From the NCBI GenBank assembly GCA_963764725.1, contig CAVXTM010000015.1:160001-224000 (forward strand): 64,000 nt of DNA, read 5' to 3'. A program made the position numbers and the translations under genes. The notes under the pieces were generated by a model, which saw only the letters and a list, made by a program, of their open reading frames with translations, searched no databases and was not told the origin of the DNA. Of the stretch, positions 4,693 to 55,252 are shown piece after piece (position 1 is the stretch's first letter; every line of letters begins with the position of its first letter). The stretch comes from an uncultured Gammaproteobacteria bacterium (lineage in GTDB: Bacteria > Pseudomonadota > Gammaproteobacteria > JACCXJ01).

Positions 4693-5715
4693 TCAAAGCG
4701 AGGCATCCAGCGGACTTCTTACCCCGCGCCCGCCCCGGTTGAGCACATGGGTATAGATCATGGTGGTCGAGACATCGGCGTGGCCGAGGAGCTCCTGCAC
4801 CGTTCGTATGTCGTAGCCGCCCTGCAACAGGTGCGTTGCGAAGGAATGGCGTAGGGTGTGGCAACTTGCAGGCTTTACCAAACCCGCGGTCCGAACCGCC
4901 TGTCTGAGACCACGCTGCAACACCGTCGGGTCGATATGATGCCTCCGCTCGATTCCGCTCGTCGGGTCGATCGACCGTTTCGATGCCGGAAAGACATACT
5001 GCCATCCCCATTCGCGATTGGCATTGGGGTACTTGCGCTCCAGCGCATAGGGCAGGTAGACGGTGCCAAAGCGCTCGGAGAGATCCCGCTCGTGCAGAGC
5101 CTTGACCTTGGAGAGATGCGTCCTTAGCGGTTCGACGAGCTGGGCGGGCAGCATAGTGATGCGGTCCTTCGCACCCTTGCCGTCGCGCACGACGATCTGG
5201 TGCATCGCGAAATCAAGGTCCTTGATGCGCAGCCGAAGGCACTCCATGAGTCGAAGTCCACTGCCGTAGAGCAGCCCTGCCATCAACCAGACGCTGCCCT
5301 TAAGCTCAGCCAGCACCGCGCGCACCTCCTCTACCGTCAAGACTATTGGCAAACGCACCGGCCGTTTGGCGCGTTCCACATTCTCAATGGTACCGAGCTC
5401 TTGCAGGAGCACGTGATGGTAGAGAAATACGAGCGCGTTGAGGGCCTGATTCTGCGTCGAAGCCGAGACCTTCCGCGCCACGGCCAAGTGTGTGAGGAAG
5501 GCTTCGACCTCGCGGGCACCCATCTGGCGTGGATGGCGCTTGCCGTGGAATAATATAAAGCGTTTAATCCAATGTATGTAGGCTTGCTCGGTGCGAATGC
5601 TGTAATGTCTCCGACGAACGACATCGCGAACCTGATCAAGCAGTCGGGGCGGAGGCGCTGGCGATTTGACGGCAACTTGCTCCTCGCCGTCTTTCCAACC
5701 AAGAACGATTCCCAT
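4693..5715 (-). CDS. intI: Integron integrase (intact)
   Basis: [20 protein letters not shown]-terminus, LLYGSGLR, IntI-specific insert ([23 protein letters not shown]), [23 protein letters not shown]. Confidence 0.98.
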
Positions 5716-5776
5716 TTTTTTGTAATCCTTTGATAGCTATAATGGACCCCCTGAACCGCCCCGCTCTTGCCGCAGG

Positions 5777-5805
5777 ATACTACGGCGCTCCCCTGTGTAC
5801 GTCAA
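5777..5805 (-). promoter_or_regulatory. sigma70 promoter Pint
   Basis: Minus strand TTGACG-17 bp-TAGTAT, about 60 bp upstream of the intI start. Confidence 0.7.
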
Positions 5806-5808
5806 CAG
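5793..5808. promoter_or_regulatory. LexA (SOS) box overlapping the Pint -35
   Basis: CTGT-GTACGTCA-ACAG matches CTGT-N8-ACAG; SOS control of intI is established. Confidence 0.8.
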
Positions 5809-5899
5809 TCGATCGCTACCGCCGCCTAGCGCCTCTCACGAGTCCCGCATGATCGGCCCGCAAGCTATTGACGGAGTTGTATATTGGGTGGCGAGTAGA

Positions 5900-5952
5900 G
5901 GGGCCGCGCCGCAAAACAAGGCGGCAGATCGGCCGCCCATTACATGTTGGGC
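5900..5952 (+). other. attI recombination site (crossover G^TT at 5946/5947; left boundary approximate)
   Basis: GTTGGGCGCC (5946-5955) is the exact complement of GGCGCCCAAC (6421-6430), the first attC R''. Confidence 0.8.
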
Positions 5953-5980
5953 GCCACATTTATAGACTGGAGCACATGTT

Positions 5981-6202
5981 ATGGAAAAGCAACTTACAGC
6001 TATCATCGAGCGTGAAGGAGATGGCTATGTTTCACTCTGCCCCGAGCTGGACATTGCGAGCCAGGGTGGCACTATCGAAGAGGCGCGCGATAACCTCCAA
6101 GAAGCTCTTCAGCTTTTCTTTGAATCCGCTTCGCCTGACGAGATCAAGCAACGTTTCCACGAAGAAGTGTATGTAACGCGGGTGCCCGTTGCCGTTGGGT
6201 AA
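5981..6202 (+). CDS. hicB: HicB-family antitoxin (cassette 1)
   Basis: AIIEREGDGYVSLCPELDIASQGGTIEEARDNLQEALQL; short form with no DNA-binding domain. Confidence 0.9.
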   Translation: MEKQLTAIIEREGDGYVSLCPELDIASQGGTIEEARDNLQEALQLFFESASPDEIKQRFHEEVYVTRVPVAVG

Positions 6203-6416
6203 ATTGAGAGCACTTTCCGGGAAAGAGCTATGCGCTATTCTCAACCGGCATGAATTCGTGGAAGTGCGTCAGCGGGGTAGCCACATCGTGATGCAAAAGA
6301 AGCTGCTGGGCACAACGATAACGGTGCCAGTGCCAAATCATCCAGAGCTTCGCATAGGCACGCTTCAGTCGATCATTCGTCAGTCCGGTGTACCACGGAG
6401 CGAGTTTGAGTCATGA
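6195..6416 (+). CDS. hicA: HicA-family mRNA interferase toxin (cassette 1; start may be 6189)
   Basis: RQRGSHIVM, VPVPNH.EL..GTL.SI.RQSG motifs; overlaps the hicB stop. Confidence 0.92.
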   Translation: MGKLRALSGKELCAILNRHEFVEVRQRGSHIVMQKKLLGTTITVPVPNHPELRIGTLQSIIRQSGVPRSEFES

Positions 6417-6423
6417 GGTTGGC

Positions 6424-6486
6424 GCCCAACAACGCGCTCCACACGGACGCTCCTGATCGTCGCGCCGGTGAGCTTATGCGTTAGGT
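6424..6486 (+). other. attC site 1
   Basis: R'' GCCCAAC, imperfect palindrome, R' GTTAGGT. Confidence 0.9.
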
Positions 6487-6499
6487 CTCACAGGTAGAC

Positions 6500-6928
6500 A
6501 TGCCGGACATTTCACCTCCAGTCGCGACACTCCTGGCAGTATTGCTCAGCGGCTTCTTGTTGCTATATGTCAATCGCAAGAATGCCCGCCGAACCGCTAC
6601 GGCGAAGTATCGTGCTGCGCTACTTGAGGCATTCACCGGTCTTTACCCAATTCCAACCAATTGGCCAGTCAACGTTGACGCGCATCTGAGGCAGATCTTT
6701 CCTCAACTTCAGCGCGCTGTAGCGGAGTTCCGTTCGTATGTTCCTTGGCGTCGCGCTTACGATCGAGCTTGGTTCGTGTATCGTCTTGGCACGGATGGTC
6801 GTGAAATCGACAAGCAGCTCTATCATCAGTACATGGGTTTCACTTCTCCCGGGGAACCGGTCATTAATCCCAAGGGAACGTTCTATACCAACGTCAACAA
6901 GTTGCTTGGTTTCGCCAGTGAGACCTAA
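6500..6928 (+). CDS. Hypothetical protein with N-terminal transmembrane helix (cassette 2)
   Basis: 142 aa ORF fills the cassette and stops inside R''. Cassette ends GTTAGGTCTCAC / GTGAGACCTAAC are 12 bp complementary. Confidence 0.85.
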   Translation: MPDISPPVATLLAVLLSGFLLLYVNRKNARRTATAKYRAALLEAFTGLYPIPTNWPVNVDAHLRQIFPQLQRAVAEFRSYVPWRRAYDRAWFVYRLGTDGREIDKQLYHQYMGFTSPGEPVINPKGTFYTNVNKLLGFASET

Positions 6929-6985
6929 CAACGCGTTCAAGGGGCGACGCGCGAAACGCGCGCGCCCTTAACGCGGGCGTTAGCT
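6923..6985 (+). other. attC site 2
   Basis: ACCTAAC..gcgttcaagggg..cccttaacgc..GTTAGCT, with the extrahelical base visible. Confidence 0.93.
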
Positions 6986-7001
6986 TTTAGAGTGGCACAC
7001 A

Positions 7002-7817
7002 ATGTCAGATGACTCGAACGCCATAAAGATTGCAAACGACTCCGGCTTTCCGCTTCAAATTGTTGTTGAAACGATCGTTACAAAGTTGACGAAGTCTCAC
7101 GGCTGGAAGGTCCGCTTTTCTGAACACTCGTGGGCCAATCGTAAGGGCAGCGCCAGCGGCTTTATTGATTTGGTTCTAGAAGACAAGCACGGGAGTACGT
7201 ATCTCGTTCTAGAATGCAAGCGAAAGAACGAAACTTGGGTATTTATGCGCACGGACGGTACTGCAAAAACGCGGAAACACGCAAAGGCGTGGGCAACTCA
7301 CTATAGAGAAGAAACCCTAAAGCGGTTTGGATGGGAAGATGTTACGCCGGACCCGGCTTGTCCAGAAGCTAGTTCCTGTGCTGTTCGCGGGATGTCCGCT
7401 AACGACAAGACAACTATGCTGGAGCGAATCGGCGGCGAGCTTATAGAAGCAACAGAGGCCTTCGCCCGGGAACAGCGCGACTTCCGTCGATCGAAGCAAG
7501 AGACGATTCGTTTCTATTTCAACGTTATCGTAACTACCGCCCAACTGAAGATTGTAAAGTTCGCTCCGGAATCCATTTCCCTTGAGGATGGAACGTTTGC
7601 GGACGCAGAGGTTGTGGACGTTCCTTTTGTTCGCTTTCGAAAGCAGCTTTCGTCTCGCGCGGTACGCTTGACGCATGAGCAGTTCGAGAACGGGTTCGAC
7701 CCTGCATATGAGAGAGAGAATACGGTGTTTGTTGTTAGAGCAAGCGAACTCCTCGACTTTCTCCAACAATTTGAACTGTCTGAAAATGACTTTCTTAAAT
7801 TTGCGCATGAAAGCTAA
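7002..7817 (+). CDS. Putative PD-(D/E)xK (restriction-endonuclease-like) nuclease (cassette 3)
   Basis: SGFPLQ N-terminal helix, FIDLVLE...LVLECKR catalytic pattern; stop inside R''. Confidence 0.7.
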   Translation: MSDDSNAIKIANDSGFPLQIVVETIVTKLTKSHGWKVRFSEHSWANRKGSASGFIDLVLEDKHGSTYLVLECKRKNETWVFMRTDGTAKTRKHAKAWATHYREETLKRFGWEDVTPDPACPEASSCAVRGMSANDKTTMLERIGGELIEATEAFAREQRDFRRSKQETIRFYFNVIVTTAQLKIVKFAPESISLEDGTFADAEVVDVPFVRFRKQLSSRAVRLTHEQFENGFDPAYERENTVFVVRASELLDFLQQFELSENDFLKFAHES

Positions 7818-7901
7818 CCATCGCATCAAAGCCGTTCGCTTCTCTCACTCGACCGCGCAAGCGCGATGCACTTGCGCGGCGCTTTATGCGAGTCGTTGGG
7901 C
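7812..7901 (+). other. attC site 3
   Basis: AGCTAAC..cgcatcaaagc..gctttatgcg..GTTGGGC; R'' complements the cassette start GTTAGCTTT. Confidence 0.92.
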
Positions 7902-7971
7902 CGATCGTGGCGGCGTGCTATCCGAGGGGCTCCAGTCCGCGTCATCTCCTGAGGCTCCCTGAGACCTTTCG

Positions 7972-8851
7972 ATGGTTCTGAGTCGTCCGACGTGCGAGGC
8001 GGGTGTGATGACGAGTCCACGCGCAACCTTGCCTCTCTTTGGAGGCGTCCACTGCGACACCGACGTTCTCACTTGGACTGGCCGATGCGTGATCGGCACC
8101 ATTCCATGCCGCATCTACGCACCGAGCCCGCTGCCCGCTTGGATTCCGTCTTCGCTAGGACCATTGGCGGCGCCTTTAGATCCGCAGTATCAGAAGGATC
8201 CGGATTGGCCAGCCGGCGGTTGGGGAATAATCAACTCCAGGCGCTCGGCAACTATAGAGGCACTTGGCCTTGAATACCTTGACCACGACCCTCCTCCAGA
8301 TCTGTTACGGTTTGATAGGGACGTCGCGCACTGGAGGACGGTGTTTCAAGACTGGCTCACTGTGCTCGCTGGAGGTCCTACAGCCTTCGAGGAACGTGAC
8401 CCCGGTACGATATGGAATACCAAAGAGCGAGCTCGCGACCTCATGTACGCAAGCTACTACGCGGGTGATATCTGGGAACCAGAAGCGATCACACGCTGGC
8501 AGTGGGAGCATGCCTTTGATCATTCTGTGGCCGGTGATGCCGCACCGCTGTCCCGAAAGCTCCTCGCGCTTGCCACACGGGACGCGGCACGGGCAGATGG
8601 GCGTAGCGCCGTGATTCATGCGGCAACGGCTGCGGAATGCGCTTTGACGAGGGGGCTCTTGCGGCAACTCCAGTTAACAGCTCTCCAGAAGAGGCTCACC
8701 TCACACTTAGCAAGACTCGCATGTTGGGACGGCGTCTAGCGCAGCCGTAGCTTCGGCCTCGACAATCATCAATGAGCTTGACCCCCTCTCAGAGCACTGC
8801 GAGGAGCCAACCCGTGAATACCTTCTCGATAGTGAGTCTGACGAGAAATGA
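7972..8851 (+). pseudogene. Cassette 4 gene, HEPN-like C-terminal region, apparently frameshifted or internally deleted
   Basis: DGRSAVIHAATAAECAL helix motif. The called ORF stops at 8739, but another frame (AAVASASTIINELDPL...DEK*) ends at 8851 next to R''. Confidence 0.55.
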
Positions 8852-8857
8852 GACTCG

Positions 8858-8864
8858 GCCCAAC
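8858..8864 (+). other. attC site 4, left fragment (R'' box), split by the inserted element
   Basis: TCGGCCCAAC (8855-8864) complements the cassette 4 start GTTGGGCCGA (7895-7904); no attC body follows. Confidence 0.85.
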
Positions 8865-9177
8865 CAGTAACCAGTAAGGATTGAGACGACCATGGATGGT
8901 CGTTTCAATCCAATGTTCAAGAAGCCCGGTGTTGGGTGGGTTCTTTATTAGGGGATTGCTTCGGTGAAGGGTGGGTGATGTGGTGGCTATGGGAATCGGG
9001 AGCTGGAGATAGCCGAGTAGAGGGCGATCGGATCTGGGTGTTGGGTATCGTAATCGGGACGGGTTTAGGGAACTGTTAATAATGCCTTTCAGGGTGGGAT
9101 TAGGGGTAGCAGGCAAAGGGAGGACGTGACCCGAAGAAGACACCGGGGGCAGCGCGGCGTTTGCAAGTTGCTATGGG

Positions 9178-10307
9178 CTACACATGGGCTGGGGATCGTG
9201 TCGAGCCGGGTGGTCTGAGGTTTGTGGGCATCCATGGGCGGCGGATGCGCCGTGAGCTATGGAAGCGGAGTCGTCCCCCGCAGGCCTGGCAGGCCGGTTG
9301 TGGCCGGGGTGGCAGTTCGACCTCCGGTACGGTCACGGTGAAGCCAAAGGCCAATTCGACTTTGGCCTTGAGATCTGCGATGGGCACCTTGGCGGTGGGC
9401 GACAGGAAGCCATAGTAGCGGACTTTCATGAACCCGGTAGGCAAGACGTGCTGGAGGAAACGGCGGATGAACTCCAAGGCGTCGAGGATCACGGTCCGCA
9501 ACCGAGCGCTGCCGGTTTTTTTGTAGGAGAAGGAGACCCGTCCGTCCTCGACCTTGAGGATGCGGTGATCCGAGATAGCCACCTTGAAGACGTAGGGAGC
9601 GAGATAGGCGATCGAAGCCTCGGCACTGGGTACGGCCTGGCAGTTGACGTTCCAGTCCTGCTGCCAGGTCTCCGAGGGGATCTGATCGAGCAGTCCGGCG
9701 GTGTGCATGAGATCGCGGAACTTGCCGCGGAAAAGCCGTGAGAGGGCTTTCACGGGCAAGAAGAAGGCGAGGCTTGAGGCATGCCAGGCGCCATCCTCAG
9801 CGGAAAGCGCCCCGCCCGGTACCACATAATGGATGTGGGGGTGATACTGTAGCTGTCGGCCCCAGGGTGAAGCACTCCGAAGAAGCCGGCTTGGTCCGCG
9901 TTGAGGAAGCGCGGATCGCGCACCAGCGTTTTGATGGCTTGAGAGGAGGCCTGGAACAGTGCATCGTAGCCCAGTTGCTGGTGGCTGCGCAGAAACGCGC
10001 GCAGGGGCTCGGGGACGGTGAAGGTGAGCATGAAGTGGTGGCCTGGCAGCTGGCGATGCAATTGTCGCTCGAGCCACTGTTGGGACTTGCGGTGTTGGCA
10101 GCCGGGGCAATGACGATTGCCGCAGGCGGCCGGGACGCGATGGTGATGGCCGCATTCCTCGCACTGATAGCAGACTGAGCCATAGATCTCGGTGCGGCAT
10201 TGGCAGATGGCCTCGAGGGTCTTTTTGTGCTCTCTGGGCATGGATTGTTCGTAGTGCTGGAGATATCCAGGGCCGTAGGTGCGGAAGATGTCATTGATGA
10301 TCCCCAT
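9178..10307 (-). pseudogene. IS91-family (Y2) transposase, 1 nt deletion at ~9866
   Basis: N-terminal Zn finger (CRT..CEECGH..ACGNRHCPGCQ), GVLH[T]WG..LQYHPHIH HUH motif broken by the frameshift, YLAPYV, VRYYGFL. Confidence 0.92.
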
Positions 10308-10308
10308 C

Positions 10309-11182
10309 TCAAAGGCCCTCCATCACTTGGTTGATGAGGGTTGAGGCGTTGTCCTGACCGGCCTGGGTCATATGGAGGTAGACCATAGTGGTCTCGAGGC
10401 TGCTGTGGCCGAGGTAGCGCTGGATGGTGCGGATATTGACGCCGGCTTCCAGCAGGTGAGTAGCATAGGAATGTCTGAGAGAATGCACGCAGGCCTCGCG
10501 TGCTCGGGTCTGAGCGGCGAACTTGGCGCGACGGAAGGTGCCCTGCACGGAGCTCTTAGCCATGGGGTGGGAAGCCGAGCGGGCGGACTTGGCATCGCGC
10601 CCCATCGCGGGGAAGAGGAGCCTCGGGTTACGATGCGAGGCCCAGTGTTTGCGCAGGATGAGGAGGGTTGCTTGAGGCAGGGGGACGAGGCGGTCTTTGG
10701 CCCCTTTGCCGCGGTGGATGTGCAACATCATCCGCTGGCTGTCAATATCGGCGATCTCCAGATGCTGGGCCTCCTGCAGCCTCAGGCCGCAGGCGTAGAC
10801 GGTGGCGAGGAAGGCGTAGTTGTGTGGGGTTCGGACGCAGCTCAGCAAGCGGCGGACTTCTTCACGGCTGAGCACGGTGGGCAGCTGCTTCTCGCGTTGG
10901 GCATGGATGAGTCGAAGGGTATGCCAGTTGCGGTGAAGGACGTACTCGAAGAAGAAGCGGATCCCGCTATAGCAGATCCGTAAAGTGGCCGGTGACCAAC
11001 GATCGACGTTTCGCCGGTGGAGAAAATAGTGTTGCAGATCCTCCTCGGTGATCTGATCCGGGGTTTTATGATAAAACTCCACGAGCATGCGCACCGCACG
11101 GGTGTACGCTTCTTGGGTGCGCTCGCCCTTTGCCGTTGAGCTGGAGGGCTTGAATGGATTTCTCGTACCAATCTTTCATCAT
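10309..11182 (-). pseudogene. Tyrosine recombinase (phage-integrase family), +1 frameshift at ~11127
   Basis: YACGLR, GKGAKDR, HSLRHSYATHLLE, LGH, TMVY. The N-terminus MMKDWYEKSIQALQLNGKG/ERTQEAYTRAVRML is split by an extra G. The called ORF 10309-11094 is the downstream part. Confidence 0.9.
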
Positions 11183-11352
11183 GGAAGGTCTCCTGTCGTA
11201 AAGGGATTAGAAGTCCGGGAAGCTCCGCGGACTTCGGACAGGAAAACAGAATTGACGTGAGGGCTAAAGACCGGCGACCGATGGGTGTGAGACAAACCGA
11301 ACTACGGCAACCAGGATCGGCAAACCGAATCTGCCGCGTAGCGGCTTACTTG

Positions 11353-11444
11353 AACTAGCGGTTGCAGCGGAGCGCTCGCCGCAGACTTTGAAGGTAGCTA
11401 GAATTTGGTGGCGGCTTCGCGCCCGCTGAACCTGATCGTTGGTC
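11353..11444 (+). other. attC site 4, right fragment
   Basis: AAC-tagcggttgcagcgg...ccgctgaacc-tgatc-GTTGGTC palindrome. Confidence 0.85.
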
Positions 11445-11541
11445 GGCGCGCAGCGCCGGGGCCACAGCCTTTAGAACGGGAGATGGGTGTGGATAGGATC
11501 ACAGGCTTTGATAACCACGATCGTGACGGCGCTAAGCCCGA

Positions 11542-11571
11542 GTAGGGCGGAACGCCGAAGGTGGTTCCGCC
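11542..11571 (+). repeat. GTAG-type REP upstream of RAYT
   Basis: GTAG + GGCGGAAC-loop-GTTCCGCC perfect 8 bp stem, 30 bp before the RAYT start. Confidence 0.85.
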
Positions 11572-11600
11572 GCATGAATGAGAGGTGATAAGGTTGACCA

Positions 11601-12175
11601 ATGCCGGATTATCGTCGTTATCGTGTACCCGGAGGCACGTACTTTTTCACCATCAATTTATTGGAGCGTCGGGCCGACTTGTTGGTGCGACATATCGAAG
11701 CGTTACGGGAGGCGGTGAAGCGTACGCGGGCCAAACGACCATTCCATATCGATGCCTGGGTCGTGCTACCCGATCACATGCATTGCGTGATTACCCTACC
11801 ACCCGGCGACGATGGCTTTTCCAATCGCATTCAGGGTTCGCTTTGTACAGGCGCTGGCGCCCGACGGAGCGGCGTTCATCGGTACGAATGGCCAAGGGTG
11901 AAAGCCAGGGCCAGGGATTGGCCCTGCCTGGCGCGCTGAGGATGCAACGTGGTATCTGGCAACGCCGTTTTTGGGAGCATGCCATTCGGGACGAGAGAGA
12001 TTATTCGCGCCATATGGATTACGTCCACTTCAACCCGGTCAAACATGGCTACGTTTCGGTGGTTGCTCAATGGCCCCATTCGACGTTTCATCGGTGGGTG
12101 AAGGCAGGTGCCTATCCACACGACTGGGGCGGCGAGGGTGCGTTGGATGTTGTCGCCGGCGAGCATGGACAATAA
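11601..12175 (+). pseudogene. REP-associated tyrosine transposase (RAYT/TnpA-REP), disrupted
   Basis: MPDYRR..PGGTYFFT, WVVLPDHMH, RGIWQRRFWEHAIRD, DYVHFNPVKHG, WPHSTF; frameshifts at ~11830-11862. Confidence 0.92.
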
Positions 12176-12527
12176 TCTGGTGCCGTGTCTACGCGGGCTC
12201 GACAGTCTTAAGGAGACTGCCCGCGAGGATCTGATCCAATTCGTCATTCATCGGATCGACGCTAGGGCTGTCGAACTGAAGTATGAACTTCACGATCTCT
12301 ATACTTCCGAGCGGACAGGTCCGCACTCATGGAGATCACAGCCTCTCCAGGGTGTGGACGGTTACGCCGTCATGCGCGCGATGGGAACCCTCGCCGTCCT
12401 AGAGTTCGGATTCGTTCGGGTCCGTCTCAAGAAACCACCATACCCAGTTAAGTTCGACGACTTCGTGGCTGCGGCATCCAAGGTAATCGATGACGCCGAA
12501 TCATGCCTCATTCAGCAACACAAGTGA
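12165..12527 (+). CDS. Hypothetical protein, probably the 3' part of the cassette 5 gene
   Basis: Open frame ending 3 nt before an attC R''. Confidence 0.55.
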   Translation: MDNNLVPCLRGLDSLKETAREDLIQFVIHRIDARAVELKYELHDLYTSERTGPHSWRSQPLQGVDGYAVMRAMGTLAVLEFGFVRVRLKKPPYPVKFDDFVAAASKVIDDAESCLIQQHK

Positions 12528-12530
12528 GAC

Positions 12531-12613
12531 GCCCAACATGGCAATCAACCTGACCGACCAACAGCGGCGCTGCGCTTGCTGTTTGTGTGCCGGTTATGGG
12601 CATCACGGTAGGC
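12531..12613 (+). other. attC site 5 (degenerate; R' reads GGTAGGC)
   Basis: GCCCAAC-atggcaatcaacctg..aacagcggcgc/gcttgctgtt..ggttat. Confidence 0.65.
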
Positions 12614-27695: not shown

Positions 27696-28339
27696 GCGCT
27701 GCTCAGACGCCAGCCCGAAGAGAAGTAGGCGATGAGGCTCACCGGCGCCGGAAGCGATTCTATATCCAAGCTCGCCCGGACCCGAGCGTGATACACACGC
27801 CCCGGGCTTAGCCAGCGGCGTTCGAGGATCGGGACACCGCGGATCTTTCCGAGCCCCGCGCGAGCATCCGCTAAGGAGGTAAAACTCTGCCGATCACCGG
27901 TGATGAGATTAACGATGACATAGGTCTTGCTTAGCGCGTGATGTTCAAGCCGGTAACCCTGCTTGACGGTGGCGATGCGCTCGTCCCAGAGGAATCCGCG
28001 CTCGCGCCGCAGCTGGGTCTCGATCAGGAGCTCGAGCGCCACCCCGTTGTCCAGCGCTTCCAGAGACTCTTTACCGAGCTTGAATCCGAGATTGGCGTCC
28101 AGCAAGTAAAAGCCGTTGACCAATCGCAGCGCCGCAGATTTGATTATGATCCCGGCAGCCGAGGCCGGCGCCGCCGCGAGCATCAACAGCAGCGCCATGC
28201 CGGCTAGAGCGCCGCGCCTCGGCAGCGGCTTAGAGTTTGTGAAGACGAAGGGAGGTCGCGTTCCGCCGCGCAACTGCAATACATGAGGATTCCGAGCACC
28301 GCCGGAACGCAACATCCCGAGCGTAGAAGGTTTTTTCAC
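27668..28339 (-). CDS. DUF4390 family exported protein (start uncertain: 28339, 28315 or 28198)
   Basis: ALDNGVAL, LDIESLPAP, W..SS.W motifs; rsmB-DUF4390-ntrYX order. Confidence 0.85.
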   Translation of the reverse strand: MKKPSTLGMLRSGGARNPHVLQLRGGTRPPFVFTNSKPLPRRGALAGMALLLMLAAAPASAAGIIIKSAALRLVNGFYLLDANLGFKLGKESLEALDNGVALELLIETQLRRERGFLWDERIATVKQGYRLEHHALSKTYVIVNLITGDRQSFTSLADARAGLGKIRGVPILERRWLSPGRVYHARVRASLDIESLPAPVSLIAYFSSGWRLSSAWFEWSLTV

Positions 28340-28346
28340 AAACTCT
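28232..28346 (-). repeat. Palindromic MITE copy A (internally deleted, 115 bp)
   Basis: TIR AGAGTTTGTGAA...TTCACAAACTCT; aligns in reverse complement with 51251-51396. Confidence 0.9.
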
Positions 28347-29671
28347 CAGACTTTCCGCAACAGCGCATAAAAGAATCCGTCCGTATTCGCGTCTCCCGGC
28401 AGCAGTTGCACTCCCGCCCCGGTATCCTGGCCGTGCGCTACGGCGATGGGGTCCAAGCGCGCGTCGGCGTGCCGAGCCAAGAAGGCGCGGATCTGGGTTT
28501 GGTTCTCGGCGGGCAGCACCGAGCAGGTTACATACAGGAGCTTGCCGGCATTCGCGAGCAAGGGCCACAAGCCGTTCAAGAGCTGCATTTGCAGGGCGGC
28601 CGATGCCGCGATGTCGGACTCGCGCCGCAGGAGTTTGATATCCGGGTGCCGCCGGATCACCCCGCTGCCCGAGCACGGGGCATCCAAGAGGATGCGATCA
28701 AACGCTTTTCCATCCCACCACGTAGCCGGTACTGAGACGTCGGCACAGTATATCTCGGCGCGCAGGCGTAAACGTTCGAGCGCCGCCCGCAGCGATGCAA
28801 TGCGCGTGGGATCGCAGTCGACTGCGATCATTCGTCGCAACTCGGGATGCATCTCTAGAATATGCGCGCATTTCCCGCCCGGGGCTGCACAAGCGTCCAG
28901 GATCCGGTGGCCGGGGCACGCATCTAACAGCACTGCGGCGATCTGAGCGCCGGCGTCTTGCACGGAGACATGCCCTTGGTCGAAGCCGGGGAGCCGCGAC
29001 ACATCCAGAATTTCCGAAAGCGCGATTGCGTAGGGACTCAAGGAGAGCGGGTGTGCTTCGAGTCCGGCCTGGCTAAGCCGCGCCAAGTAATCCTCACGCG
29101 AGCCGCAACGCACGTTGACGCGCAGGGTCATCGGTGCCCGATCATTGTTGGCTGCGGCGATGCGTTGCCAGGACTCCGGCCAGGCCGTCTTTAGCGCCGC
29201 CAGCAACCACACCGGATGCGCGTATTGCGCAGCCTCGGTGGCCGGCTCGGCGAGCAGCTTGTCGCGGTGCTTCAGGAAAGCACGGAGCACGGCGTTGACG
29301 AGCGGGGCGGCGCGAGCGCGCCCGAGGCGCCGGCTGGCGTCCACAGTCGCGGAGACAGCCGCGTGATCCGGAATACGCAGATACTGGAGCTGATAAATAC
29401 CGATCAAGAGTAAAGCAAAGACCGCGGTGTCGATTTCCTTGTGTGGGCGCGAGAGGAGCTTGATCACAAGCGACTCCAAGGCCGGAAACCAGCGCAAGGC
29501 GCCATAGGCGAGCTCCTGAGCGAGGCCGCGGTCGCGGGGATCACGCAGGTGGCTCAGCAACATCGGCATGCATGCGGCCAAGGACTGGCCCTGCCCCACG
29601 ACGCATGACACGAGCAGCGCGGCAACCGCGCGCGCATCCTTAAGCGGCCGCGGGGACTGCCTACCCGTCAT
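28346..29671 (-). CDS. rsmB: 16S rRNA m5C967 methyltransferase
   Basis: VSVQD, LDACAAPGGK, ILLDAPCSGSGVIRRHPDIK, DGFFYA. Confidence 0.97.
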   Translation of the reverse strand: MTGRQSPRPLKDARAVAALLVSCVVGQGQSLAACMPMLLSHLRDPRDRGLAQELAYGALRWFPALESLVIKLLSRPHKEIDTAVFALLLIGIYQLQYLRIPDHAAVSATVDASRRLGRARAAPLVNAVLRAFLKHRDKLLAEPATEAAQYAHPVWLLAALKTAWPESWQRIAAANNDRAPMTLRVNVRCGSREDYLARLSQAGLEAHPLSLSPYAIALSEILDVSRLPGFDQGHVSVQDAGAQIAAVLLDACPGHRILDACAAPGGKCAHILEMHPELRRMIAVDCDPTRIASLRAALERLRLRAEIYCADVSVPATWWDGKAFDRILLDAPCSGSGVIRRHPDIKLLRRESDIAASAALQMQLLNGLWPLLANAGKLLYVTCSVLPAENQTQIRAFLARHADARLDPIAVAHGQDTGAGVQLLPGDANTDGFFYALLRKV

Positions 29672-37520: not shown

Positions 37521-37694
37521 GTTCTAGGGCACGTACAATATATCGCCCGCGGGGCAGGTGTCCCGCGGACCACCAAAGGGGAGAGTTGCACTTCTCCCCT
37601 TTGGAAACCCTAATGCTAGAGTGCCCGCCGGAAGCGGCGGGGTATTAATGAAAACCGTCGAGCGGTGAGACGAGCGAAAGCGGAGAACTGAGTT

Positions 37695-38885
37695 ATGTCC
37701 AAGGAGAAATTTCAGCGAACGAAGCCGCATGTGAATGTAGGGACGATAGGGCATGTGGATCATGGGAAGACGACGTTGACGGCGGCGTTGACGATGGTGA
37801 TGTCGAAGAAGTTTGGAGGGGAGGTCAAGGGTTATGATCAGATCGACAATGCGCCCGAGGAGAAGGCGAGGGGGATCACGATAGCGACGGCGCATGTGGA
37901 GTACCAGAGTGAGAAGCGGCACTATGCGCATGTGGACTGTCCGGGGCATGCGGATTATGTGAAGAACATGATCACGGGGGCGGCGCAGATGGATGGGGCG
38001 ATATTAGTGGTGAGTGCGGCGGATGGGCCGATGCCGCAGACGCGCGAGCACATTTTGTTGGCGCGTCAGGTAGGGGTGCCCTACATTGTGGTGTACATGA
38101 ACAAGGCGGACATGGTGGATGATGCGGAGTTACTGGAATTAGTGGAGATGGAGGTCAGGGAGTTACTGGACAGTTACAAGTTTCCCGGGGAGAAGACGCC
38201 GGTGGTGGTGGGGAGTGCGTTGAAGGCGTTGGAGGGGGAGGGGAGTGAGCTTGGGGTGCAGTCCATCGAGAAGCTAGTGGCGGCGATGGATGAGTACATT
38301 CCGGTGCCCGAGCGGGCGGTGGATCAGCCGTTTTTGATGCCGATTGAGGATGTATTTTCGATCTCCGGGCGGGGGACGGTGGTGACGGGTCGAGTGGAGC
38401 GTGGGCGGGTCAAGGTCGGGGAGGAGGTAGCGATTGTTGGGATCCGGGAGACGCAGAAGACGATCTGCACGGGGGTGGAGATGTTTCGGAAGTTATTGGA
38501 TGAAGGGCAGGCGGGGGACAATGTCGGGGTGTTGCTGAGGGGGACCAAGCGCGAGGAGGTGGAGCGTGGACAGGTATTATGCAAGCCGGGGAGTGTGACG
38601 CCGCACACCCATTTTGAGGCGGAGGTGTATGTGTTATCGAAGGAAGAGGGAGGGAGGCACACGCCGTTTTTCAGCAATTACCGGCCGCAGTTTTATTTTC
38701 GGACCACCGATGTAACGGGGGCGGTGGAGTTACCCTCAGGGGTGGAGATGGTGATGCCTGGGGACAATGTGAAGATGGTGGTGAAGTTGATTGCGCCGAT
38801 TGCGATGGAAGAGGGGGTGAGGTTTGCGATCCGCGAAGGGGGCCGCACCGTCGGGGCCGGCGTCGTCGCTAAGGTCATCGAGTAG
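37695..38885 (+). CDS. tuf: Elongation factor Tu (copy 1)
   Basis: [21 protein letters not shown]. Confidence 0.99.
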
Positions 38886-50877: not shown

Positions 50878-51252
50878 ATGGCTACGATCAATCAACTGGT
50901 CAGGCGTCCGCGGAAACAACAGCGGCTAAAAAGCACCGTGCCGGCGCTTGAAGGATGTCCGCAGAAGCGCGGTGTCTGTACGCGCGTCTATACGACCACA
51001 CCCAAGAAACCGAACTCGGCCCTGCGAAAGGTCGCGCGCGTGCGGCTCACCAACGGCTATGAAGTGACGAGCTACATCGGGGGGGAGGGACACAACTTAC
51101 AGGAACATTCAGTGATCCTGATCCGTGGTGGACGGGTCAAGGACCTTCCCGGTGTTCGCTATCACACGGTACGAGGCATCTTGGATACTTCGGGTGTCGC
51201 GGCTCGCCGACAAGGGCGATCGAAGTACGGGGCTAAGCGCCCGAAGTCTTAG
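50878..51252 (+). CDS. rpsL: 30S ribosomal protein S12
   Basis: [24 protein letters not shown]. Confidence 0.99.
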
Positions 51253-51396
51253 CGTTTGTGAAAAAACCTACTACGCTCAGGATCTCGCGTTCCGGCGGTA
51301 ACTCGGAATCCTCATGTATTTCAATATACACTCCGGTTCCTGCGCTCCGGCGGAACGCGACCTCCCTTCGCTCGCGACGGTTTTTTCACAAACTCT
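51251..51396 (+). repeat. Palindromic MITE copy B (146 bp, 17/18 bp TIR)
   Basis: AGCGTTTGTGAAAAAACC...GGTTTTTTCACAAACTCT with internal palindrome cgcgttccg/cggaacgcg. Confidence 0.9.
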
Positions 51397-54034: not shown

Positions 54035-54061
54035 CGACGAGCGAAAGCGGAGAACTGAGTT

Positions 54062-55252
54062 ATGTCCAAGGAGAAATTTCAGCGAACGAAGCCGCATGTG
54101 AATGTAGGGACGATAGGGCATGTGGATCATGGGAAGACGACGTTGACGGCGGCGTTGACGATGGTGATGTCGAAGAAGTTTGGAGGGGAGGTCAAGGGTT
54201 ATGATCAGATCGACAATGCGCCCGAGGAGAAGGCGAGGGGGATCACGATAGCGACGGCGCATGTGGAGTACCAGAGTGAGAAGCGGCACTATGCGCATGT
54301 GGACTGTCCGGGGCATGCGGATTATGTGAAGAACATGATCACGGGGGCGGCGCAGATGGATGGGGCGATATTAGTGGTGAGTGCGGCGGATGGGCCGATG
54401 CCGCAGACGCGCGAGCACATTTTGTTGGCGCGTCAGGTAGGGGTGCCCTACATTGTGGTGTACATGAACAAGGCGGACATGGTGGATGATGCGGAGTTAC
54501 TGGAATTAGTGGAGATGGAGGTCAGGGAGTTACTGGACAGTTACAAGTTTCCCGGGGAGAAGACGCCGGTGGTGGTGGGGAGTGCGTTGAAGGCGTTGGA
54601 GGGGGAGGGGAGTGAGCTTGGGGTGCAGTCCATCGAGAAGCTAGTGGCGGCGATGGATGAGTACATTCCGGTGCCCGAGCGGGCGGTGGATCAGCCGTTT
54701 TTGATGCCGATTGAGGATGTATTTTCGATCTCCGGGCGGGGGACGGTGGTGACGGGTCGAGTGGAGCGTGGGCGGGTCAAGGTCGGGGAGGAGGTAGCGA
54801 TTGTTGGGATCCGGGAGACGCAGAAGACGATCTGCACGGGGGTGGAGATGTTTCGGAAGTTATTGGATGAAGGGCAGGCGGGGGACAATGTCGGGGTGTT
54901 GCTGAGGGGGACCAAGCGCGAGGAGGTGGAGCGTGGACAGGTATTATGCAAGCCGGGGAGTGTGACGCCGCACACCCATTTTGAGGCGGAGGTGTATGTG
55001 TTATCGAAGGAAGAGGGAGGGAGGCACACGCCGTTTTTCAGCAATTACCGGCCGCAGTTTTATTTTCGGACCACCGATGTAACGGGGGCGGTGGAGTTAC
55101 CCTCAGGGGTGGAGATGGTGATGCCTGGGGACAATGTGAAGATGGTGGTGAAGTTGATTGCGCCGATTGCGATGGAAGAGGGGGTGAGGTTTGCGATCCG
55201 CGAAGGGGGCCGCACCGTCGGGGCCGGCGTCGTCGCTAAGGTCATCGAGTAG
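54062..55252 (+). CDS. tuf: Elongation factor Tu (copy 2)
   Basis: Same protein as 37695-38885. Confidence 0.99.

Follow-up and report, generated by a model that had tools for sequence, protein, structure and literature searches.

How does an insertion sequence (IS) come to lie exactly at the recombination core of an integron cassette, and why do its own two ends, once joined, resemble a recombination site of the same attC type? The question is raised by a 64,000-nucleotide stretch of DNA from an uncultured gammaproteobacterium (assembly GCA_963764725.1, contig CAVXTM010000015.1, positions 160,001 to 224,000 of the forward strand), here called the window, to which all coordinates refer unless a contig or locus is named. 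The segment at 8864-8961 was confirmed as the right, oriIS-side end of an IS91-family insertion sequence on the minus strand, which is 2.48 kb long and runs from 11355 to 8872/8868. An original prediction, made from the letters of the window, had described this element as a 'cassette mimic' whose ends rebuild an attC-like hairpin when circularised. We tentatively favor the reading that its HUH transposase inserts the element at the top strand of attC sites and that its ends pair into an attC-shaped fold, a reading that may well prove wrong and has several rivals.

The element and its position in an attC site

The limits of the element were set by comparison of five copies in the same genome, which begin with GTTCAAG (11355 in the window) and finish with ...TTACTGGTTA (8868). 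Because the final GTT(A) is common to the element and its target, the crossover can be placed only within or next to GTT. The element encodes a tyrosine recombinase (Phage_int_SAM_4 and Phage_integrase domains; 10309-11181, minus strand) upstream of an IS91-family Y2-HUH transposase (9178-10307, minus strand). Frameshifts break both genes in the window copy, the recombinase gene near its start and the transposase gene into two frames, one with Zn_Tnp_IS91 at 9750-10307 (PF14319, 93 bits) and the other with Y2_Tnp at 9178-10200 (PF04986, 177 bits). An intact homologue of the transposase (L003) scores 367 bits on NF033538, the NCBIfam IS91 model (cut-off 125). The window copy is a dead, inactive copy. 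The same genome holds four further full- or near-full-length copies that are 89-91% identical and have both genes open, one of them (L005 plus L008) being split by an insertion.

The flanks are unrelated between copies and show no target duplication, both in the five copies of this genome and in five multi-copy families of relatives. There are no terminal inverted repeats at both tips; the left tip carries a small palindrome and the right tip a large imperfect hairpin. The left end fits terIS and the right end fits oriIS. Among the partial copies of the genome, L006, L009, L010, and L011 retain the right end and L007 is internal, while none consists of the left end only. Likewise, the right end is retained and the left end missing in the relatives L026, L047, L054, L074, and L078. 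This retention of the right end in partial copies places the origin there. L010 and L011 were also considered as autonomous mini-elements, but this was dropped; both resemble relics of the right ends of diverged copies.

The element sits inside the attC site of the fourth cassette of a chromosomal integron, directly after the R'' box and exactly at the AAC/GTT core. The R'' core GCCCAAC of this cassette (8858-8864, plus strand; GTTGGGC on the IS strand) complements G+TTGGGC at its start (7895-7901), and the rest of the attC site resumes beyond the element at 11356-11444 (plus strand), with the spacer, L''...L', and the R' core G^TTGGTC (11438-11444). This remainder was scored as an attC-like hairpin (L001; 90 nucleotides (nt), with an R''-type box GACCAAC on the IS strand). 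Read along the IS strand, the order is a complete attC-like hairpin, G^TT, the element, and G^TT, which amounts to a cassette-like slot. [quoted passage not shown] Two exact-pattern scans of metagenome contigs for an empty site, one with the end of cassette 4 and the other with the start of the attC remainder, gave no match, and cassette 4 was likewise not detected when the family's 14 other genomes were searched at the DNA level.

Anatomy of the two ends and their predicted fold

On the minus strand, the right end starts with a 12-nt, R''-like box GGCTT-CTTGAAC (8915-8926), which is the reverse complement of the left terminus. It is followed by a 3-nt spacer ATT (8912-8914) and by the subterminal imperfect hairpin of oriIS (8878-8911), whose 16-nt arms (8911-8896 and 8893-8878) are 15/16 complementary, with one A.C mismatch and a 2-nt loop CC. 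A 6-nt unpaired tail TTACTG (8872-8877) separates the hairpin from the nick or crossover point, where GTT comes next. The original prediction had read the same order downstream of the transposase, from the box to G^TT with a 16-bp stem and one mismatch, and every one of these sequence statements holds. The left terminus GTTCAAG-T-AAGCC (11343-11355, minus strand), which would be R'-like after circularisation, is also present as claimed, together with the terIS-side palindrome GCCGC-tac-GCGGC (11333-11345, minus strand). This palindrome shares 3 nt with the inner, box-pairing part of the terminus.

Box and terminus are complementary at 12/12 positions with one bulged T, a level reached by 12 of 2000 shuffles of the terminus. 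The complementarity foreseen for the joined ends, 7/7 between CTTGAAC and G+TTCAAG and the remainder between GGCTT and AAGCC across a 1-nt bulge, was thus recovered in full. The box accordingly complements G followed by the six bases with which the element begins. In the same way, the R'' box of every cassette in the array complements G and the initial six bases of the cassette to which it belongs, so that the likeness to cassettes 1-4 noted in the original prediction is real, and the term 'cassette mimic' is apt in that the joined ends keep the cassette rule and the slot at the attC core is cassette-like. The R boxes of attC sites follow the consensus RYYYAAC/GTTRRRY, to which CTTGAAC and GTTCAAG each conform at 5/7 positions.

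Upstream of the box, inside the right end, lies the predicted, possibly oriIS-like motif AAGCAATCCCCTAAT (8947-8961, minus strand). It is conserved among the genome's own copies, and related families have a look-alike, ..ATTACCCTATATA.., at equal distance, a conservation at the level of sequence. A 7-nt repeat of the tail plus G, TTACTGG (GTTACTG on the minus strand; 8865-8871), occurs only in the window copy, whereas the other copies of the genome finish with ...TTACTGGTTA and pass into unrelated flank without a tail repeat. Similar short tail repeats are present in L024, in L027, and, by comparison with L086, in L088. Like that of the window, they are tandem units of the 6-7 nt that separate hairpin and nick point, each restoring AAC on the bottom strand. 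A single locus, sampled in two genomes as L086 and L088, differs by one such unit, so the repeat arose in place. In three loci (L048:3093-3200, L064:4349-4460, and L024:4172-4290), the origin module of partial box, hairpin, and tail is tandemly doubled, the second unit beginning within the box at TTGAAC. No Rfam family was found in 8000-12500 at E values up to 1.

The junction was modeled by joining the last 70 and first 32 bases of the element and folding both strands with DNA parameters. The top strand folds at -23.7 kcal/mol (z -5.3) and the bottom strand at -25.9 kcal/mol (z -5.7). In each minimum free energy structure, the hairpin and the small ter palindrome are formed, and an internal loop of 3/6 nt is closed by the 7-bp helix CTTGAAC/GTTCAAG.

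Conservation among close and distant relatives

A scan of one genome per species yielded at least 216 relatives of the transposase, of which 80 loci with 56-94% amino-acid identity were kept. Nitrospirota, Desulfobacterota, Rokubacteria, and Chloroflexota are among their sources, and many of them occur in several copies. The box could be recognized in 75 of these 80 loci and the left terminus in 60, with misses mostly at contig ends. Both ends were available in 57 loci, and removal of L026 and L047, whose left matches have 3-4 mismatches and whose left part is missing, left a set of 55, which consists of many copies of few families and not of 55 independent events. The end anatomy of box, 3 nt, imperfect hairpin, 6 nt, and GTT recurs throughout this set, and box and terminus match perfectly (12/12) in 47 of the 55. 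In one family (L091 and L092), a change is compensated, ATTCAAG being accompanied by CTTGAAT, and the flanking target is likewise ATTC. Across L091, L092, and L054, which belong to one Nitrospirota genome, the first base (G to A), the box (...GAAC to ...GAAT), and the target (ATTC) have switched together.

The hairpin itself covaries. Among 38 distinct right ends, a 14-pair helix has 84.6% of its cells paired and 6 pairs changed on both sides, values reached by none of 500 shuffles and far above those of slid controls. All 38 right ends fold, every one with an internal mismatch or bulge, and they share a conserved outer stem, a variable tip, and the 3/6-nt spacer.

Complementary ends of other sequence occur in two distant clades. 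An element on a Persicobacter plasmid, with a transposase ~37% identical over the matched part, starts with GTTGAAC-T-AAATCCC and has AGGGGTGTA-GTTCAAC 48-64 nt from its presumed right end (14/16 complementary; 2 of 2000 shuffles as high). A large alpha-proteobacterial clade that has the recombinase gene starts with CC(N)AGGAC-G-AAGCC and carries GCGGCTTCC(A/T)CCTTGG 75-91 nt from the right end, its limits being set by four identical copies in Rhizobium jaguaris. Here, 12-14 of 16 positions are complementary (2-138 of 2000 shuffles as high), and a 2x2 mismatch takes the place of the bulged T of the close clade. Across the distant clades, the complementary box is always 47-91 nt from the right end. 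In these two integrase-bearing clades, the end sequences differ and yet stay complementary. The original prediction called for a test of covariation between the internal NNNNAAC and the terminal GTTNNNN in homologues; the other clades keep the complementarity with different letters, and within the close clade covariation is thin, with one compensated family against four uncompensated changes. A separate observation concerns L093, an IS801-like element on a Pseudomonas avellanae plasmid, in which CTTG before the origin palindrome complements the target CAAG and the target extends the palindrome, as a single case.

Insertion at attC sites and orientation

Flanks were classified by a crude script, which called them attC-like if a 7-mer with AAC at its end lay 50-150 nt upstream and if a single closed hairpin formed at -0.18 kcal/mol per nt or lower. 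It was applied to 55 independent left flanks from the window's genome and from relatives, with other GTT sites of the same loci as controls; L019 was dropped from the flank tests because its left end is spurious. The left flank was attC-like in 17 of 55 insertions and in 9 of 366 control sites (Fisher 1e-10), which is an excess of ~12-fold in frequency with an odds ratio of 18, and several more flanks resemble attC sites by eye. The boxes found in these flanks include GTCTAAC, GCATAAC, GCCCAAC, and ATCTAAC, and right flanks start with GTTATGC, GTTAGGC, GTTAGCC, and similar sequences. The element itself starts with GTTC (or ATTC), and the 46 right flanks that could be parsed start with GTTA (24), GTTG (7), GTTT (5), or others (10). 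The right flanks also tend to follow the cassette rule, in that the complement of the 7-mer lies 100-2700 nt downstream in 13/43 cases compared with 38/301 control 7-mers (p 0.005).

Orientation points the same way as in the window. At 16 attC-flanked insertions, the longest open frame of the upstream kilobase occupies the opposite strand in 12 and the same strand in none, with 4 undecided, whereas the split at other flanks is 16 vs 16 of 35. In the genome of the window, copies of the element are separated by 1.6-9 kb from an intI gene or fragment (contigs C15, C7, C13, C10, and C9) and are always on the intI strand. The element is, however, not confined to attC sites. In chromosomal integrons, attC bottom strands are described as lying mostly on the leading-strand template, which implies that the top strands are more single-stranded; the top strand is used ~1000-fold less by IntI and is found for the most part on the single-stranded lagging-strand template (PMC8946536).

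The recombinase

For the intact recombinase, the best NCBIfam model is the integron integrase TIGR02249 (E 7e-53; 180 bits in two stretches). This score is below the cut-off of 265, whereas the true intI of the window reaches 496. The XerA, XerD, and XerC models come next with 140-167 bits, each below its own cut-off. The best solved relative is VchIntIA (IntI4; 2a3v, E 3e-31), with the archaeal XerC-like 4a8e nearly equal. The catalytic R, HxxR, and Y align with those of IntI4, and the protein combines a SAM-like N-domain (PF13495) with PF00589. In the IntI-specific segment, 24 residues of the recombinase face 58 of IntI4, so that ~34 are missing. Judged by these comparisons, the recombinase is a member of the Xer/IntI branch and not an IntI. 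It might excise or integrate the element at the fold in the manner of a cassette, make termination accurate, or take part in targeting.

Proposed mechanism and alternative explanations

In the mechanism that we tentatively favor, the HUH transposase would nick after AAC on the bottom strand, at a distance of 6 nt from the hairpin, and this strand would be peeled off up to the terIS terminus (...CTTGAAC) and closed into a single-stranded circle. Within the circle, the box would anneal to the terminus and bring both cleavage points together in a 57-nt, attC-shaped fold with a 7-bp R-like helix, a 3/6-nt unpaired spacer, an L-like conserved outer stem, and a variable tip. The circle would then be inserted into single-stranded DNA (ssDNA) at a look-alike of its own origin, namely AAC followed by a spacer and a hairpin, which an attC site's folded top strand may offer. 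Because the attC top strand mimics the origin, the element would land in integron arrays antiparallel to the cassettes. HUH chemistry for the insertion step is favored by the polarity of truncation, the micro-duplications of the tail, the use of the attC top strand, and the likeness of the target to the element's own origin. A role for the recombinase is favored by its kinship to IntI, the exact coincidence with the cassette crossover, and the end pairing, which was seen in the three recombinase-bearing clades and was weak or absent in the two recombinase-less relatives. That the box may guide the choice of target, by analogy with IS608, is only a lead, and since the target resembles the ter terminus, complementarity between box and target is not independent evidence for it.

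Several observations weigh against this mechanism. In the predicted fold, the five inner base pairs (GGCTT/AAGCC) share sequence with the ter palindrome and lie outside the minimum free energy structure, so that the two would be alternative structures. The stability of the hairpin favors neither strand (bottom 20, top 16, equal 2; p 0.22). The element occurs in 20 public metagenome runs, all in the form of Logan contigs, and alignment of four of them (X1, X2, X3, and X6) to an intact copy showed no back-joint; those contigs stop at the element ends, which says nothing about circles. Uncompensated mismatches between box and terminus occur in six loci (L021-23, which are one family, L029, L056, and L085, which has two), and near-invariant boxes and termini would also fit recognition of duplex DNA by a protein. 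The box is missing at the expected place in L112, a decayed Rhizobium element, and in L099, a Bradyrhizobium type with a right end ~290 nt further out. Among the insertions, 38 of 55 fail the attC-like test, and the insertions of the Nitrospirota family L027-35 are in other repeats. Finally, the recombinase-less IS1294 has only a weak match of box and terminus (10/12; 158 of 2000 shuffles as high) and a recombinase-less IS801-like element has none. The pairing, present in the recombinase-bearing clades and weak or absent in these two relatives, is therefore not a general IS91 feature but tracks the recombinase, which favors an explanation in which the recombinase acts.

In such an explanation, the HUH enzyme would merely supply ssDNA, and the IntI-like enzyme would bind the folded junction, exchange a strand with a folded attC site, and perhaps also excise the element like a cassette. 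The original prediction had proposed much the same, and part of it stands: both enzymes belong to one element, the junction keeps the cassette rule and is predicted to fold, the crossover coincides with the attC core, and the closest family and solved relative of the recombinase are integron integrases with a matching catalytic set. The pairing was found in all three recombinase-bearing clades examined, the conserved outer stem and variable tip recall the L boxes and tip of attC, and the missing IntI insert may match the absence of clear extrahelical L-box bases. What does not fit is that the enzyme scores below the IntI cut-off, lacks the ~34-residue insert, and resembles XerA and XerC almost as closely, and that the element lies antiparallel at the R'' of the top strand, the strand described as used ~1000-fold less by IntI (PMC8946536). 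Left-truncated copies and tail micro-duplications are unlike conservative recombination and fit HUH activity, and the alpha-proteobacterial clade has recombinase and pairing yet lacks attC-type targets. On balance, insertion by the recombinase appears somewhat unlikely. A true hybrid of rolling-circle transposon and cassette, in which the HUH enzyme would copy the strand out, the two ends would form a minimal attC, and the insert-less IntI-like enzyme would recombine it with the attC strand neglected by IntI, is unlikely as well, and slightly more so. The further notion of an autonomous, cassette-like 'replicon' found no support, as the element is an insertion sequence and its window copy is dead.

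The ends might also be those of a plain IS91-family element, with box and terminus read by a protein as an inverted repeat in duplex DNA, the fold having no role, and attC sites being hit by way of GTT and hairpin extrusion. The near-invariance of box and terminus across transposases of 56-94% identity, while the inner hairpin covaries, is a typical pattern of protein sites, and uncompensated changes do occur; moreover, IS91-family targets are described as short tetranucleotides resembling the ter site (PMC13181058). However, a conserved 1-nt bulge, replaced by a 2x2 mismatch in the alpha-proteobacterial clade, would be awkward for one duplex-reading protein, the duplex would stop exactly at the cleavage point, and both the excess of attC flanks and their orientation (12 vs 0) argue against this explanation, which we regard as improbable. 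Very improbable indeed is that the IntI of the host moves the element as a gene cassette, with the element's own proteins unneeded for placement in arrays. In favor of this, the genome has at least three intI matches above the family cut-off with copies of the element nearby, and the junction, 57 nt long, follows the R''/R' rule. Nevertheless, placement at R'' is inverted with respect to a cassette entering at R', the R boxes agree only partly with the consensus, about two thirds of the insertions lie off recognisable attC sites, and the element spreads without visible arrays, e.g., in the L027-35 family.

The integron and other features of the window

A complete chromosomal integron occupies 4693-12600, and its cassettes are bounded at 5946, 6481, 6979, 7895, 11438, and about 12593. 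The integrase gene intI lies at 4693-5715 on the minus strand (TIGR02249 match at 4702-5643, 496 bits; PF00589 and PF13495), and the attI core GTTGGGC was read directly at 5946-5952 on the plus strand. The five cassettes, all on the plus strand, start with G^TT at 5946 (cassette 1, R'' box GCCCAAC), 6481 (cassette 2, ACCTAAC), 6979 (cassette 3, AGCTAAC), 7895 (cassette 4, GCCCAAC), and 11438 (cassette 5, GACCAAC). Cassette 1 encodes a HicA toxin (PF07927, 63 bits) with a weak UPF0150/HicB-like partner. The start of cassette 5 (11436-11540) is a ~105-nt repeat with at least seven copies of ~90% identity in the genome, several of them beside copies of the insertion sequence, and at 11585-12175 the cassette carries a broken IS200-like Y1 HUH protein (PF01797, 19 bits, below the cut-off). 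From these sequence features, cassette 5 may be a cassette of the repetitive extragenic palindrome (REP)-associated transposase type.

Besides the intI of the window, at least two others in the genome score above the family cut-off, one of them with a stop codon, and there are several intI fragments. These genes and fragments are located at C7:99992-100918, C13:52921-53691, C12:400958-401382, C9:425-670, and C10:127014-127231. The genome thus holds several integron loci, with a copy of the insertion sequence near each. Elsewhere in the window, two directly repeated stretches that are identical over at least 300 nt (37669-37968 and 54036-54335, 16.4 kb apart) probably represent two copies of another mobile element. 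There is also a 56-nt inverted repeat with 89% complementarity (28298-28353 and 51244-51299, 22.9 kb apart).

Relation to known systems and implications

The element shares with IS91, IS801, and IS1294 a Y2-HUH transposase with a zinc-binding domain and the absence of terminal inverted repeats and target duplications. As in the family at large, it has a terIS tetranucleotide with a small palindrome, a subterminal oriIS palindrome downstream of tnpA, a short target motif resembling the ter tetranucleotide, and truncated or one-ended copies. Some members of the family in ISfinder, among them ISWz1 and ISShvi3, have a phage-integrase gene upstream. In published accounts, terIS is a cleavage tetranucleotide (GTTC in IS801 and IS1294) beside one small subterminal palindrome, oriIS consists of one or two subterminal palindromes beside the target tetranucleotide, and the functional intermediate is a bottom-strand single-stranded circle (PMC13181058, 2026). 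Unlike IS91, which has orf121 at that place (PMC13181058), the element has a tyrosine recombinase gene before tnpA. It also differs in the 12-nt box beside the ori hairpin that complements the ter terminus, in its GTT/AAC core where IS91 has GTTC/CTTG flanking ori, and in its preferential position at attC cores. In the literature searched, mostly at the level of titles and abstracts, no description was found of end complementarity, a cassette-like junction, or attC targeting in IS91-family elements.

With integron cassettes and their attC sites, the element shares a box that complements G plus its first six bases, G^TT-core boundaries in a cassette array, and, in the predicted fold, an R-like helix with AAC/GTT at its inner ends, an unpaired spacer, another conserved helix, and a variable tip. 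The attC site is described as having an L''/L' helix with extrahelical bases, an unpaired central spacer, and a variable terminal structure (PMC8946536). In contrast, the fold of the element has R boxes that fit the consensus in part, a 3/6-nt spacer, an internal mismatch, and no clear extrahelical bases. Unlike cassettes, the element carries two mobility genes of its own, sits antiparallel at R'', and also occurs outside arrays.

Group IIC-attC introns lie opposite to the cassettes, as does the element. These introns and the IS1111-attC elements are known as attC-homing mobile elements (PMC9229058), and the element resembles both as a site- and orientation-specific occupant of attC sites in arrays. 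Their enzymes are entirely different, being a DEDD transposase in IS1111-attC elements and a ribozyme with a reverse transcriptase in the introns. No IS1111-attC element or group IIC-attC intron is known to imitate a cassette with its own ends. In the IS200/IS605 family, IS608 has an HUH enzyme, subterminal imperfect hairpins with cleavage a few nt away, a hairpin-foot sequence that complements the cleavage or target site, and insertion into ssDNA at forks (PMC3201880, PMC5934647, and PMC5027513). The element is similar in its HUH enzyme, subterminal imperfect hairpin, nearby cleavage point, and short complementary sequence at the hairpin foot, whereas IS200/IS605 elements use a Y1 enzyme and a peel-and-paste pathway in place of Y2 and rolling-circle transposition and have no recombinase gene.

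Genes for resistance and virulence travel with IS91-family elements and the related ISCR elements, yet their choice of target and recognition of the terminating end are poorly understood. End complementarity together with homing to attC sites leads to hypotheses, open to test, on how paired ends might serve in termination and in closing the circle. A further suggestion is that a target may be chosen by its structural likeness to the element's own origin, and that a second, cassette-like route of mobility is possible. The element adds a third kind of attC-seeking mobile element, able to break up or remodel arrays of cassettes. Action of the recombinase on the fold, if it occurs, would bear on the evolution of single-strand recombination in integrons. 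Should the hybrid of transposon and cassette prove true, the element would be a self-replicating, self-inserting cassette that parasitises integrons, and its enzyme a living recombinase of the IntI/Xer branch that works on folded single strands outside integrons.

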